Of a stretch of DNA of 64,000 nt, positions 20,024 through 46,670 are shown in pieces. The notes below the pieces were generated by a model. The model made no database searches. It had not been told where the DNA came from and was given only the letters and a program-made list of their open reading frames with translations. Location of the stretch: the sequence record NC_054920.1; one strand, 5' to 3'. This DNA comes from Escherichia phage vB_EcoM_G9062. Every line of letters begins with the position of its first letter. The stretch's first letter is position 1. The translations under genes and the position numbers were made by a program.

Positions 20024-20281
20024 TTATTTTAAAACTTCTGCATAATCACATGTTACAAACTGTTTCTCTAACTTGGCGATTTTACGAAAGTATCTTTTGC
20101 ATTGACGAATCTGTCGCTTTGTAGGGCGCACAGCAAACTTAATAAATTCCACTCGACCAAATGGAGGGCTTTCTTCTGCCGGAATATCTAATACTAATTC
20201 CCACGTATCTGCAATAAGTGCTTTGAATTGAGTATTTTTCCTGACATTATACGGAGTAGGTTTAAATAAAACGATATGCAT
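20024..20281 (-). CDS. hypothetical protein (85 aa)
   Basis: minus-strand ORF. Confidence 0.5.
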   Translation of the reverse strand: MHIVLFKPTPYNVRKNTQFKALIADTWELVLDIPAEESPPFGRVEFIKFAVRPTKRQIRQCKRYFRKIAKLEKQFVTCDYAEVLK

Positions 20282-42160: not shown

Positions 42161-42631
42161 TTAATCATGTTTCCACACCCCATCGGTATTTGACCAAAGT
42201 CGCTGATTATCTGATCCTCGCCACAGCTTTTTAGTCGGAAGATTTTTCTCATACTTCCCATCAATAATAACATCAACATATTTAAGCATTTCTAGCTGTT
42301 TAATATCTTCAAACTTATATCCTGTCCACAACCAAATGCTTTTATTGGGATAAAGATTTTTAATAGTTTGAACCACAGAGTGAATCACGTCTCTGTTATC
42401 AGGATAAAGAGGGTCACCTCCGGTTATAGTTAATCCTTCTATATAATCATTATTCAAACATTCAATCAATTGTTCTAGCGTTTCACCAGTGAATGGAATA
42501 CCATTTCTAGCATTCCATGTTGATTTATTATAACACCCTTCACATTTATGCAAACAACCTGTAACGAAAAGAACGACCCTGCAACCAGGGCCATTCACAA
42601 AATCACAAGGATAAAATCTATCATAATTCAT
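42161..42631 (-). CDS. nrdG: anaerobic ribonucleotide reductase activase NrdG, radical SAM (156 aa)
   Basis: 156 aa; Cys-rich radical SAM region CDFVNGPGCRVVLFVTGCLHKCEGCYN. Confidence 0.9.
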   Translation of the reverse strand: MNYDRFYPCDFVNGPGCRVVLFVTGCLHKCEGCYNKSTWNARNGIPFTGETLEQLIECLNNDYIEGLTITGGDPLYPDNRDVIHSVVQTIKNLYPNKSIWLWTGYKFEDIKQLEMLKYVDVIIDGKYEKNLPTKKLWRGSDNQRLWSNTDGVWKHD

Positions 42632-44445
42632 TGATGCTTAACCCTATGCATGATTTCTTTATTTTTACCGAGATTAAATCCGCGTTCGTTCGGGTTTCCA
42701 AGATATCCGCATGTTCTTCTTATTGTGTTCATCTTTTTAGGATCAGTTTCTCCACAAATAGAACAAACAAATCCGTTTTCAGTAGGAGTCATTTCATGGG
42801 TACTTCCGCATGTAAAACACTTATCTACTGGCATGTTAACACCAAAATAATCTAAATGTTGTACAGCATAATCCCATACAGCCTCAAGACCTTTTAGGTT
42901 ATTTTTCATATCAGGAAGTTCAACATAAGAAATGTGACCACCTGTCGCAATGAAATGATATGGCGCTTCACGAGAAATTTTTTCAAACGGAGTAATATTT
43001 TCTTCTACTGAAACGTGGAAACTATTAGTGTACCAGCCTTTATCGGTAACATCTTTTACACTTCCATATTTTTCTGTATCAAGTTTACAGAAGCGATAAC
43101 AAAGGTTTTCAGCAGGAGTCGAATATAAACTAAAAGCAAATCCAGTTCTTTCAGTCCACTGTTTAAGATGAGCATTCATTTTAGTTAAAATTTCTTGTCC
43201 AATATCACGACCGACAAGAATATTCAATTCGTGAATACCAATGTATCCTAGGGACACTGAACTTCTGCCGTTTTTAAATAACTCAATTATGTCATCATCA
43301 GGTTTAAGACGAACCCCGAATGCACCTTCTTGGTAAAGAATAGGAGCTACAGTTGCTTTAACACCCTTTAAAGAACTAATTCTACGCATCAAGGCTTCAA
43401 AGCACAGATCCATTCGTTCATTAAATAGCTCAACAAATTTCTGTTCATTGAACTGTGTTCCAATATAAGAATCTAATGCGATACGAGGAAGATTCAGTGT
43501 TACAACACCGAGATTATTACGTCCATCAAGAATTTCATTACCAGTCGAATCTTTCCATACGCTCAAGAAACTACGGCAGCCCATCGGAGAAACAGGAATA
43601 GATGAACCAGTGATAGCTTTATTGTTCTTAGCTGAAATAATATCAGGATACATCCTTTTGCTTGCACACTCTAGAGCAAGCTGCTTAATATCATAGTTCG
43701 GATCGTCTTTATAAAGATTAACACCTTCTTCAACGAACATAACAAGCTTAGGGAAAATAGGAGTTATCCCATCACGACCGAGACCTTTAATACGATTTTT
43801 CAGAATTGCTTTCTGAATCATTCGTTCAGTCCAGTCAGTTCCCGTACCAAATGTAATTGTTACAAAAGGTGTTTGCCCGTTTGAACTAAAGAGAGTATTT
43901 ACTTCATATTCATAAGCTTGAAATGCATCGTATACGTCTTTTTCTGTTTTAGATTGAGCATAATTCAACGCATCGGCGATTTGCCATTTTTCTGCATCCT
44001 CAATATGTTTTGCATAGGTGCGTTTAACATAAGGAGAAAGTACTTTATCTACATTCGCAAAAGTCGTTCCGCCGTATTGGTGAGAAGCAACCTGTGCAGT
44101 AATTTGTGCCATAATTGCAGTAGCAACGCCAATTGATTTAGGAGTTTCAATCTGTGCATTACCAAGCTTAAATCCGTTCTCAAGCATTCCTTTTAAATCT
44201 ACTAAACAGCAATTAGTAAATGGAAGAGCAGGGGAATAATCAATATCATGGAAATGAATAATTCCGCTTTCATGCGCTTTCATAATAAAAGACGGGACCA
44301 TATTTTTGGCAATGTGTTTAGACACAATACCAGCCATAAGGTCCCGTTGAGTTGGAAAAACACGAGAATCTTTATTAGCATTCTCGTTTAAAAGGTCTTT
44401 ATTAGTTTTATGAATCAATCCTTCAATTTCTTTTTCAATTGTCAT
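42628..44445 (-). CDS. nrdD: anaerobic ribonucleoside-triphosphate reductase NrdD (605 aa), uninterrupted
   Basis: 605 aa; C-terminal zinc ribbon CFTCGS...CSICG and glycyl-radical motif RRTCGYLG; ATGA overlap with nrdG. Confidence 0.95.
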   Translation of the reverse strand: MTIEKEIEGLIHKTNKDLLNENANKDSRVFPTQRDLMAGIVSKHIAKNMVPSFIMKAHESGIIHFHDIDYSPALPFTNCCLVDLKGMLENGFKLGNAQIETPKSIGVATAIMAQITAQVASHQYGGTTFANVDKVLSPYVKRTYAKHIEDAEKWQIADALNYAQSKTEKDVYDAFQAYEYEVNTLFSSNGQTPFVTITFGTGTDWTERMIQKAILKNRIKGLGRDGITPIFPKLVMFVEEGVNLYKDDPNYDIKQLALECASKRMYPDIISAKNNKAITGSSIPVSPMGCRSFLSVWKDSTGNEILDGRNNLGVVTLNLPRIALDSYIGTQFNEQKFVELFNERMDLCFEALMRRISSLKGVKATVAPILYQEGAFGVRLKPDDDIIELFKNGRSSVSLGYIGIHELNILVGRDIGQEILTKMNAHLKQWTERTGFAFSLYSTPAENLCYRFCKLDTEKYGSVKDVTDKGWYTNSFHVSVEENITPFEKISREAPYHFIATGGHISYVELPDMKNNLKGLEAVWDYAVQHLDYFGVNMPVDKCFTCGSTHEMTPTENGFVCSICGETDPKKMNTIRRTCGYLGNPNERGFNLGKNKEIMHRVKHQ

Positions 44446-44915
44446 TTTAAACTCTTTCTAAGCTGCTTCTTAAATGAAGCTATTAACTGTGTTTTGGTGT
44501 CAGATTCATTATATTCAAATCCTCTTTGAAGCATCTCGGCCATCATTTCCTCTTTTCCTAAACGAGAAAATTCCTTTGATTTATCTCCAACAAAGTTAGG
44601 GTGAATATTATTTTGGGTGTAATCGGATTTTAAATAAGTAAGTAAATTTTCTAACCATTCAAGATAATCAACACCTTGTCCCTTTAAGCCAGAACGATTA
44701 AATTTATGCTTCATTTGACCTTCTGCGGCATTGCAGAGATTACAAAGCAATCCACGTATCTTTCCTGCTTTTGGTCCATTTAATTCATGGTCATGATCAA
44801 GATGATTAGCTTGAACATCAGGATTTAGTTCTCGTTGGCAAATTAAACATTTACCGTTTTGTGCATCATAAAATTTCTGTTTTTCTTCTTTATATAATTT
44901 GCCAGTCAATAACAT
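44442..44915 (-). CDS. 49: endonuclease VII, Holliday junction resolvase (157 aa)
   Basis: 157 aa; zinc motif CLICQ...H...LCNLCN. Confidence 0.9.
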   Translation of the reverse strand: MLLTGKLYKEEKQKFYDAQNGKCLICQRELNPDVQANHLDHDHELNGPKAGKIRGLLCNLCNAAEGQMKHKFNRSGLKGQGVDYLEWLENLLTYLKSDYTQNNIHPNFVGDKSKEFSRLGKEEMMAEMLQRGFEYNESDTKTQLIASFKKQLRKSLK

Positions 44916-44954
44916 AATAAACCCTTACCTTAAATAGATAAGGGTATTTATTAT

Positions 44955-45243
44955 TTTTAAGTATTGTAAAACATTCGATGCAATCGTTTATACTGTCGAA
45001 TCATCTTTTTAGTAGGACGAGAATAGGTTCCTACGCAAGTGGTCATATGAGGGTCCGTAGAATGTCCTTTAATAAAAAGTTTCCAAACCTTACCGCCATT
45101 TAACTTTTCAGTATAAACCAATTCGGTTTTCATTAAAATGCCTTGTCAGAAAAAGAATTTTGAGTTTTTTCAAGTATTATAAAACATTTGATGCAATCGC
45201 TTATATTGCCGAATCATTTGGTCAGAAAAAGAATTTTGAGTTT
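44955..45243. repeat. nested direct repeats (about 50 bp and 23 bp)
   Basis: 44955-45008 resembles 45166-45220; gtcagaaaaagaattttgagttt occurs at 45146-45168 and 45220-45243. Confidence 0.7.
44957..45133 (-). CDS. small protein (58 aa), not in ORF track, sharing C-terminal tail with next gene
   Basis: my translation MKTELVYTEKLNGGKVWKLF...MIRQYKRLHRMFYNT; tail duplicated in 45170..45673. Confidence 0.4.
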   Translation of the reverse strand: MKTELVYTEKLNGGKVWKLFIKGHSTDPHMTTCVGTYSRPTKKMIRQYKRLHRMFYNT

Positions 45244-45673
45244 CAAGCCATTCAATATATTCTGCCGCAGCTTGCATCAGGTTACCTTCATAATCATCAA
45301 TATCTTTTTTCAATGCCACTTTAGCTAATGCATATGAAATACGTTCACCTTGAAAAGCGGCTTTAGGCTTCTTAACATCTTGGCTAGTTCTCTCTACAAC
45401 TTCCTCGATTTCACCATTTTCAACGGATTCAGTATTCCACAAACACCAATACGTAATTGGCTTATCATAGATGTTAATAATTTTTCCATCAGAAAGTTCA
45501 ATTTCAATAATTCCAGTGTCAGGCTCTATATCATCTTCACATTCTTTTGCAAGTTCACGAACTTTAAAGACAGTACCTGCACTAAGTTCCGGCCAGTAAT
45601 TACACAGCCCTGTATCAGCACGATTAATTCTAAACCACTTATCTACTGTAATCATGTCCCATCTCCATATCAA
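45170..45673 (-). CDS. hypothetical protein (167 aa or shorter)
   Basis: minus-strand ORF between 49 and nrdC, acidic. Confidence 0.5.
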   Translation of the reverse strand: MIWRWDMITVDKWFRINRADTGLCNYWPELSAGTVFKVRELAKECEDDIEPDTGIIEIELSDGKIINIYDKPITYWCLWNTESVENGEIEEVVERTSQDVKKPKAAFQGERISYALAKVALKKDIDDYEGNLMQAAAEYIEWLETQNSFSDQMIRQYKRLHQMFYNT

Positions 45674-45777
45674 TTAAGTCATTTATCGTTGGTTCATTAT
45701 ATACTGTTTCTTCATCAGTGTAAACCGGTTCTTCCGGCTCTGGCTCTACAGTTTCCCATCTAGCCGCCCACCAAGGT

Positions 45778-45972
45778 TTAACCCCGAAGCTTATTAAGTT
45801 CTTCATAATCAACCCAGGATTCTAATCCTGATGGCAGGTCACATTCAATTTCCCAAAGAAGTTCTTCAATTTTATGAAGACGATCTAATTCTTCAACAGG
45901 AATAGTAACCATTGATGGAGCTCTTGCTGCACTAATATCGTATATCATATTTACCCCAGTTTGACCATGCAA
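45778..45972 (-). CDS. hypothetical protein (64 aa)
   Basis: minus-strand ORF. Confidence 0.45.
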   Translation of the reverse strand: MHGQTGVNMIYDISAARAPSMVTIPVEELDRLHKIEELLWEIECDLPSGLESWVDYEELNKLRG

Positions 45973-46166
45973 TCACCGTATTTCCACTTAGAAATAGACT
46001 TTTCACCATTAGAATAATAAACTTCGAGTTTAGCACGATTATTTTTAATTTGAATAACCTTGGCTGTCATTAAAGTTCCATACCCATAGTAAACTGCAAC
46101 TTCATCACCTACATATACCGCGCTTCCGCGGTAATCATGGATATAATCAGTTCCTTCGAGCATCAT
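45951..46166 (-). CDS. hypothetical protein (71 aa)
   Basis: ATGA-coupled to nrdC. Confidence 0.45.
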   Translation of the reverse strand: MMLEGTDYIHDYRGSAVYVGDEVAVYYGYGTLMTAKVIQIKNNRAKLEVYYSNGEKSISKWKYGDCMVKLG

Positions 46167-46426
46167 TTAAAGTATTCCCGCAATTGGTCAAATCCACCAA
46201 TATGACTTCCATCAGGAGCAAATACCTGAGGCATTGTTAAGCCGATTTGAGTATCACGACCTAGTTTAGTCAGAAGCTCAGCGATTTTCTCATCATCAAA
46301 AACACCTTTTTCCGGCATAATGTTGATAAATTCAAACGGCTGTTTCTTCACGGTCAAAAGACGTTTTGCATTATCGCAATACACGCATTTGTGGATGTTG
46401 CTATCATAACCATATACTTTAAACAT
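46163..46426 (-). CDS. nrdC: thioredoxin/glutaredoxin NrdC (87 aa)
   Basis: 87 aa; CVYC redox motif. Confidence 0.8.
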   Translation of the reverse strand: MFKVYGYDSNIHKCVYCDNAKRLLTVKKQPFEFINIMPEKGVFDDEKIAELLTKLGRDTQIGLTMPQVFAPDGSHIGGFDQLREYFK

Positions 46427-46427
46427 A

Positions 46428-46670
46428 TTATTCCTTAATTCCTAATACTTGTTTAAAAGTCTCGTCGTAATCAAGACTTTGGCCTGTTTGTTCTTTATGT
46501 TTGTATATAATATCACTTACTTCTGATAGCATATTTTTATATGAACGAGTTAAAGCAGATTTAAGCACGCTGTATCTATCAGGAAATTTACCGTGTTCAT
46601 TATAATAAGCTATTGCTAATTCACGGACTGCCTTTTCAGCAGCCTCCATATATTCTTTACGCTTTGTCAT
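46428..46670 (-). CDS. hypothetical protein (about 81 aa)
   Basis: probable start [13 protein letters not shown]; the longer track ORF overlaps the upstream gene. Confidence 0.4.

Follow-up and report, generated by a model that had tools for sequence, protein, structure and literature searches.

Direct repeats between pin and gene 49 of a T4-like phage as the probable footprint of a gene fusion and a partial duplication

In the 64,000-nucleotide (nt) stretch of Escherichia phage vB_EcoM_G9062 analyzed here (NC_054920.1, hereafter the window), two neighboring open reading frames (ORFs) upstream of gene 49 end with the same C-terminal peptide, MIRQYKRLHRMFYNT in a 58-amino acid (aa) ORF (ORF58) and MIRQYKRLHQMFYNT in pin. 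The window derives from a T4-like phage (Tequatrovirus). A first-pass annotation of the sequence had noticed the shared ending within a set of nested direct repeats, and had offered two readings: a recombination or duplication scar, or a shared 3′ recombination cassette. To which of the two genes does the peptide belong, and how did the other come to carry it? Our analysis favors the scar: the repeats are very probably the footprint of two illegitimate-recombination events at the pin/gene 49 boundary in T4-like phages, a fusion of pin with ORF58 and a 76-bp partial duplication.

A repeat search detected an exact 23-nt direct repeat (unit A, 45145-45167 and 45221-45243) and a longer repeat of 65 nt with 82% identity (44940-45004 vs. 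45153-45217). The informative core of the latter (unit B, 44957-45004 vs. 45170-45217) spans 48 nt, is identical at 42 of the 48 positions and corresponds to 15 codons plus a stop; the remainder of the 65 nt is weak AT-rich similarity. When 200 dinucleotide-preserving shuffles of 44000-46500 served as the null model, the longest exact repeat had a mean of 11.5 nt and a maximum of 17 (23 observed), and the best 48-nt ungapped match a mean of 28 identical positions and a maximum of 31 (42 observed). Units A and B are each present in exactly two copies in the window at up to three mismatches, with 0 expected. The direct repeats are therefore beyond chance. Their units derive from adjacent sequence, as the comparison with single-copy states (see below) shows, and this befits a duplication or fusion scar.

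The first-pass annotation had described a ~50-bp repeat with a few mismatches, a 23-bp unit occurring twice and two ORFs sharing a C-terminal peptide. All three descriptions hold, with coordinate corrections of 1-2 nt (it had placed the 23-bp unit at 45146-45168 and 45220-45243). Its 167-aa ORF does carry the tail, but is the 161-aa pin gene read from an upstream TTG; the ATG of the T4 and RB32 annotation gives 161 aa. An assembly artefact was ruled out, because the arrangement is present at full length, as one BLAST piece, in 109 independent GenBank phage records.

Every gene of the pin-gene 49 region is on the minus strand. In gene direction the layout is pin core-A-junction codon-B, then two A residues-A′-relic-ORF58 body-B′, then the hairpin and gene 49 (Table 1). 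The relic, which spells K-A-F-stop, is now non-coding. At the homologous site of the unfused relatives described below (type i) the sequence is GAC CGA GCA TTT TAATG, that is, ...D-R-A-F-stop.

Table 1. Repeat units, relics and genes of the pin-gene 49 region, listed in gene direction (positions are those of the window)
Feature	Position	Strand	Remarks
49.1	45639-45812	-	
pin, 161 aa	45170-45655	-	Inhibitor_I24 core + DUF7279 tail
A, coding copy	45221-45243	-	end of the Pin core (ETQNSFSD)
Fusion-junction codon	45218-45220	-	CAA (Gln); CGA (Arg) in T4 and unfused Pin
B, captured tail copy	45170-45217	-	last 15 pin codons + TGA; MIRQYKRLHQMFYNT-stop
Part of A-run	45168-45169	-	at the novel B/A′ junction ACTTGAAAAAACTC
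A′, non-coding copy	45145-45167	-	second copy of AAACTCAAAATTCTTTTTCTGAC; leftover (E)TQNSFSD codons of the original pin end
Relic of unfused pin 3′ end	45133-45144	-	AAG GCA TTT TAA (K-A-F-stop); TAA overlaps ORF58 ATG (TAATG)
ORF58, 58 aa	44957-45133	-	between pin and gene 49
X, ORF58 body	45005-45133	-	codons 1-43
B′, native tail copy	44957-45004	-	last 15 ORF58 codons + TAA; MIRQYKRLHRMFYNT-stop
Hairpin	44921-44945	-	ACCCTTA...TAAGGGT, single copy; directly upstream of the gene 49 start; from the terminator-like scan
Gene 49, endonuclease VII, 157 aa	44442-44915	-	PHROG endonuclease VII families, E ~1e-61; gene 49 in T4 and RB32 annotation
nrdD	42628-44445	-	

Profile matches assign the shared peptide to ORF58. 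The Pin core matches Pfam Inhibitor_I24 (PF10465) with 158.1 bits (cut-off 27, E 1.6e-46) over residues 4-140 of 161, and the match to phrog_2167 (E 2.8e-62) ends at residue 146 of 161 (residue 152 in the numbering of the scanned 167-aa ORF with its TTG start). The C-terminal 15 Pin residues are outside the Inhibitor_I24 domain, and the last 16 match the C-terminus of phrog_3272, the family of ORF58. Within ORF58 itself, both the phrog_3272 and the DUF7279 profiles cover the tail.

The distribution of the tail leads to the same answer. Pin-like ORFs were found in 37 of the 44 IMG/VR loci anchored on gene 49, which represent many Tevenvirinae genera; in these loci the tail is present in no Pin outside five Tequatrovirus contigs, and many Pins end with ...LExQLxFSD(R/K/E)AF. 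Save for a single fusion contig (L058, see below), Pins outside Tequatrovirus are tailless. All 148-aa Tequatrovirus Pin clusters end with SFSDRAF or SFSDRAL, and the ORF for the Pin C-terminal domain of phage JS10 ends with FSDEAF and a stop. In the IMG/VR loci the tail travels with the ORF58 homologues, and it is kept in those of RB69, JS10 and S16; in the ancestral type i state the C-terminal helix of ORF58 reads ...KKMIRQYKRLHRMFYNT. The tail thus belongs natively to ORF58, and pin has captured it. The first-pass view of the peptide as a duplicated C-terminal module of Pin gives way to that of a native DUF7279-gene helix, since the Pins of the other Tevenvirinae read are tailless. Because residues 42-56 form the only helix of the AlphaFold2 model of ORF58, the captured module would be the whole C-terminal helix of that protein.

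The donor is a real gene under purifying selection. ORF58 is a full-length member of DUF7279 (PF23945), with 62.7 bits against a cut-off of 24.5 over residues 7-56, and matches phrog_3272 with E 3.4e-34; it is RB32ORF078c and is related to RB69ORF087c. Its AlphaFold2 model (predicted local distance difference test, pLDDT, 81.5) contains three strands followed by the helix. The ratio of nonsynonymous to synonymous change (pN/pS) is ~0.1-0.16 between diverged Tequatrovirus alleles, only synonymous changes (CGA/CGG, CAG/CAA and AAA/AAG) were observed in the tail among the Tequatrovirus copies compared, and the gene is conserved across the Tevenvirinae genera sampled. Its position between pin and gene 49 is the conserved one of the DUF7279 (phrog_3272) family (RB32ORF078c, RB69ORF087c, JS10 gp075 and S16 gp48.1), and its last helix is here also present as a copy fused to Pin.

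A word-indexed protein search with ORF58 returned 10 clusters only, the literature search found no paper on DUF7279 or RB69ORF087c, and neither Pin nor ORF58 has a sequence relative among the solved structures in PDB. In RB32, the GenBank note on the ORF58 homologue reads 'similar to RB69ORF087c, JS98orf087clike, pin', and some records label ORF58 a 'host protease inhibitor'. Both labels are due to the shared tail only, and this annotation oddity is explained by the history of the fusion.

DUF7279 genes are also present elsewhere. In the window, an 85-aa ORF on the minus strand at 20024-20281 is a second DUF7279 member (72.7 bits) and carries VRPTKRQIRQCKRYFRK. A 60-aa ORF precedes it and a 97-aa lipoprotein-like ORF follows, and the gene 41 helicase lies two genes upstream. 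The same genome thus has, at an unrelated position, a paralogue of the ORF58 family. In RB69 (L004), DUF7279-type genes are found on both sides of pin, with ORF089c (960-1076; tail RPTKRQLRKAKRSHRNFYREY) upstream and ORF087c downstream.

Fifteen Tequatrovirus loci were compared as segments between fixed anchors, with gene 49 as downstream neighbor and anchor, and the window, T4 and RB32 were aligned. Three states of the locus were observed. In type i (EcNP1 and BMB16), a 148-aa Pin ends with ...ETQISFSDRAF and its stop overlaps the start of ORF58 (TAATG); the layout is A-relic-X-B and the anchors are 267 nt apart. RB69 (Mosigvirus), JS10 (Dhakavirus) and RZ (Gaprivervirus) likewise have Pin (or its C-terminal part), ORF58, the hairpin and gene 49 in this order. 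In type ii (T4, T6, T2 and four IMG/VR contigs) only A-B is present, with 130 nt between the anchors. The T4 sequence equals that of EcNP1 minus GCATTTTAATG...ACTAAAAAG (137 bp). Since the frame of ORF58 differs from that of pin, a deletion of 137 bp aligns the ORF58 tail with the pin frame, and the 161-aa PinA results. In type iii (this window, RB32, APTC-EC-2A, SG1, ECO4, PYps35T and the IMG/VR contig L010) the layout is A-B-A′-relic-X-B′ and the anchors are 343 nt apart, which exceeds type i by 76 bp and type ii by 213 bp.

Unduplicated and unfused relatives with precise breakpoints thus exist, as a scar predicts. The comparison with T4, T2 and T6 that the first-pass annotation had proposed bears out its scar reading, all three phages being type ii with a single A-B copy at the locus.

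The three states differ in abundance. The 1-kb region 44700-45700 was matched in 642 phage records; the type iii junction is present at full length in the 109 records mentioned above, and ORF58 at ≥80% identity in 193. Type i would account for ~84 records (193 minus 109), an indirect and approximate count, and type ii presumably for ~450 of the 642, likewise an approximate difference between searches. Among Pin protein clusters, the fused 161-aa form has 657 member sequences and the 148-aa form 44. Pattern scans of IMG/VR retrieved five Tequatrovirus contigs (four type ii, one type iii and zero type i), too few for frequencies.

The junctions are shared by all the sequences read. T4, T6, the IMG/VR contigs and all type iii phages have the fusion junction, GAC-C(G/A)A / A(T/A)G-ATT, in one and the same position. 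At one tail position, CGA (Arg) in every ORF58 corresponds to CAA (Gln) in every fused tail. Of the seven type iii sequences read, six have exactly the same B/A′ junction; that of PYps35T has one extra A. One fusion junction and one B/A′ junction are common to all sequences read, which points to a single origin of each.

L010, SG1, ECO4 and PYps35T, four of the seven type iii sequences read, have AAATTTC in unit A and AAAATTC in A′, and the exact 23-nt identity is found only in the window/RB32/APTC lineage. B and B′ differ at 3-6 of 48 positions. The captured tail B matches the EcNP1-type ORF58 allele (CGG CAA TAT AAG ... TGA), unlike the resident ORF58 tail (CGA CAG TAT AAA ... TAA). The fused Pin tail shows M/K, R/Q and H/N polymorphisms, R/Q at the junction codon, the fixed R-to-Q change and one synonymous change, and the constraint on it is relaxed or altered. 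After A′, the relic codons CGA GCA of type i have become AAG GCA (window and SG1) or AGG ACA (RB32, L010, ECO4 and PYps35T), and either change places a purine-rich motif (AAGG or AGGA) 7-8 nt upstream of the ORF58 ATG. Such motifs may act as a Shine-Dalgarno-like compensation for the translational coupling to pin that ORF58 would have lost.

These data suggest a history in two events. The ancestor would have been of type i, with a ~148-aa Pin ending ...LETQ(I/N)SFSDRAF, a TAATG overlap with ORF58, and then the hairpin and gene 49. In the first event, a 137-bp deletion would have removed the pin stop with the two codons before it, plus codons 1-43 of ORF58, correcting the frame; the product would be the Pin core plus the ORF58 helix, the 161-aa PinA of T4, T2 and T6 (type ii). 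In the second event, the end of the fused A-B would have been joined to an unfused locus, at the start of its unit A, in the A-run beside CTTGAAA, a heptamer common to the end of B and the start of A. The product, pin-A-B followed by A′-KAF-stop-ORF58 (type iii), is the state found in this window. For the order of events we favor a recombination, unequal or illegitimate, of a type ii genome with a diverged genome of type i, which would account for the A vs. A′ differences in four of the seven type iii sequences, the 3-6 differences between B and B′, and the match of B to the EcNP1-type allele and not to resident ORF58.

The repeats left by these events could themselves recombine. An exchange between A and A′ (23 nt) could delete 76 bp, which would restore an unfused Pin ending SFSDKAF and overlapping ORF58, and an exchange between B and B′ (48 nt) could delete 213 bp, which would leave a T4-like locus.

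Several observations weigh against this history. A simple join at CTTGAAA would leave three A's fewer than the B/A′ product contains, and the fusion junction shows only 0-1 nt of microhomology. Microhomology-mediated repair was accordingly considered and rejected, as it is a clean fit at neither junction; the three extra A's would place the B/A′ join in or next to a slippery A-run. The genomes of T4-like phages are mosaic, and the A/A′ and B/B′ allele differences could be later. Among the cluster representatives there is no unfused Pin ending SFSDKAF or SFSDRTF, the endings expected after an A/A′ exchange, so that resolution from type iii back to type i is hypothetical. In addition, a tandem A-X-B duplication in a type i genome followed by the 137-bp deletion in the first copy would give the same product.

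That duplication came before fusion is possible, although we consider it rather unlikely. A type i locus would have tandemly duplicated A-relic-ORF58 (~213 bp), and a 137-bp deletion in the upstream copy would have produced type iii. We judge it just as doubtful, but possible, that the deletion was harmless because the second ORF58 remained, and that type iii later gave rise to type ii by recombination between B and B′. The spacing from B to B′ is exactly 213 bp, the difference in length between type iii and type ii, and by sequence logic B/B′ recombination in type iii would give precisely the T4 arrangement. The T4 tail is indeed a patchwork, in which CAA is the state of the pin copy, TAC that of the ORF58 copy and the ORF58 3′ flank follows, and the exact identity of A and A′ in this window fits a duplication. 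Yet the same allele differences that favor recombination between genomes are at odds with a simple duplication: A has ATT where A′ has AAT in four of the seven type iii sequences, and B, with its 3-6 differences from B′, resembles an EcNP1-like allele and not the resident one. No genome with two full ORF58 copies was seen, with a second match place in two of 356 matched records, both unexamined, and type ii is far commoner and more diverse than type iii.

Two further explanations would assign the repeats a role. The repeats might be a mobile or recombination cassette that moves ORF58 in and out of genomes, for instance promoter-early stem-loop (PeSL) units, which are reportedly mobile regulatory cassettes of T4-type phages. 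Some Tequatrovirus genomes have ORF58 and others do not, and in type iii direct repeats flank it, so that recombination between them would excise it; the likeness to PeSL units extends to short direct repeats flanking a small accessory ORF in a variable early region. However, both repeats obviously stem from the neighboring genes, as coding sequence or as its relic, each unit has only two copies in 64 kb instead of dispersed ones, and a scan of 44957-45004, 45145-45167, 45170-45217 and 45221-45243 found no promoter-like or terminator-like site within them, whereas a PeSL unit would bring its own promoter and stem-loop. Moreover, type i Tequatrovirus, Mosigvirus, Dhakavirus and Gaprivervirus have ORF58 at the same place without flanking repeats. 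A cassette is thus extremely improbable, and the suggestion of a shared 3′ recombination cassette in the first-pass annotation finds no support.

It is also very unlikely that the duplicated stretch was kept as RNA, for long-range structure or control of ORF58 or gene 49 translation, with the identical peptides as a by-product. A hairpin upstream of T4 gene 49 is said to mask the ribosome-binding site on long early transcripts, and A′ keeps the native upstream context of the ORF58 start. Against such a role, the minus strand of 44900-45260 folds no more stably than its shuffles (z = -0.56), the gene 49 hairpin aside, A and A′ form no helix with each other, nor do B and B′, and the purely synonymous change in the ORF58 tail points to selection on the protein. 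T4 lacks the duplication, yet has the same gene 49 hairpin. This hairpin is outside the duplicated units, follows the ORF58 tail copy in all three configurations and is kept in T4, EcNP1, RB69 and JS10. We therefore return to two illegitimate-recombination events as the preferred account of the repeats. The mechanism is ordinary (illegitimate deletion, unequal crossing-over and leftover direct repeats), and no new kind of element is involved.

Pin has been fused to DUF7279 sequences elsewhere. In a Mosigvirus-like contig (L058, 2501-2926; Logan SRR20302901), Pin ends with ...EYLERR/FHRDFYNVY and a stop, an 8-residue tail fusion produced by a precise deletion between the ACGTTT of the pin end and the ACGTTT of the ORF087c tail. 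With its own ACGTTT deletion, this contig represents an independent Pin-tail fusion; it is a single contig with several odd D-to-G substitutions, and its sequence quality is uncertain. In two ENA metagenome contigs (L059, 2501-3076, and L060, 1510-2085), a single-T deletion (TATTGATATG to TATGATATG) has fused the upstream, RB69ORF089c-like DUF7279 gene in frame to the N-terminus of Pin, giving 191 aa. The gene 49 hairpin comes directly after pin in L059, without an ORF087c homologue, and L060 ends just after pin.

Such fusions could be taken as 'Rosetta-stone' evidence that DUF7279 proteins are functional partners of Pin, which we regard as unlikely, though worth stating. The basic C-terminal helix of DUF7279 might, for example, bind Pin, Lon or another AAA+ protease. 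If this were true, T4 PinA would have merged a two-component system into a single chain, and Pin in its unfused form would depend on ORF58 to be fully active. The fusions are equally compatible with neutral deletions in a deletion-prone interval. Three findings speak against a functional link: (i) the fused Pin tail is under relaxed constraint or is diversifying, with four nonsynonymous polymorphisms and the fixed Arg-to-Gln change; (ii) many genera have Pin but no adjacent DUF7279 gene; and (iii) a DUF7279 paralogue resides at an unrelated locus (20024-20281).

Other rearranged forms of Pin were also seen. In JS10 (L005, 1029-1686; Dhakavirus) and the IMG/VR contigs L013, L016 and L018, Pin is apparently split and the order of its parts swapped: a 57-aa helical ORF for the Pin C-terminus (ending FSDEAF-stop) precedes a 100-aa ORF resembling the N-terminal beta-domain, and the ORF58 homologue follows. 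In a 142-aa ENA protein (P0030), the first ~83 residues are Pin and the remainder matches Peptidase_S24 (PF00717); its only source is one 1.5-kb contig, possibly a chimeric assembly.

The region 44700-45700 has 99.8% identity to phages EC.W14-2 and S2_01 and ~96% to RB32 and RB33. Downstream, nrdD is one unbroken 605-aa ORF; in T4 the gene is split by a group I intron with I-TevII, and mobC adjoins in the T4 annotation. Upstream, between 49.1 and nrdC, the minus strand at 45778-46166 encodes a 64-aa ORF and a 71-aa DUF7205 ORF, and T4 has 49.2 and 49.3 there. The 64-aa ORF has a weak Pfam match to the T7 gp5.9 RecBCD inhibitor (E 0.013, under the cut-off), and the RefSeq label of its RB32 homologue is 'antitoxin from a toxin-antitoxin system'.

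Illegitimate recombination in T4 has classically yielded deletions that fuse adjacent genes, such as r1589, which joins rIIA to rIIB, and tandem duplications. The products described here resemble those: an in-frame deletion fusion, and a short partial tandem duplication with a homopolymer or microhomology junction whose repeats can recombine out. They differ in that the classical products were laboratory mutants, whereas here all three states are fixed in natural lineages, and the fused pin became the 'wild type' of the model phage. In the same way, the repeats resemble PeSL units in their setting but differ from them in having neither promoter nor stem-loop, in having two copies and in being coding sequence of their neighbors.

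PinA of T4, an inhibitor of the E. coli Lon protease, is orthologous to, and collinear with, the 161-aa ORF at 45170-45655, including the tail. In T4 PinA, too, the family domain ends at residue ~140-146, and the last 15 residues come from the neighboring DUF7279 gene. The unfused 148-aa Pin is probably the ancestral form. Work on Lon has used T4 PinA (UniProt P07068), the fused form (PMC8835725). Within the Pin family, biochemistry of Lon inhibition is that of T4 PinA only, that is, of the fused form, and the PinA papers found contain no discussion of the C-terminus. In the AlphaFold2 model of Pin the C-terminal half has a pLDDT of ~50, and the model weakly suggests that the tail continues the last Pin helix.

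These data indicate that (i) T4 PinA owes its C-terminal 15 residues to a neighboring gene, from which they were captured; (ii) the natural 148-aa Pin and the 58-aa DUF7279 protein are the relevant controls for work on the structure and mechanism of Lon inhibition; and (iii) the natural series of unfused, fused, and fused plus intact donor forms, with base-pair-exact junctions, offers a teaching and benchmark case for the birth of gene fusions in phages.

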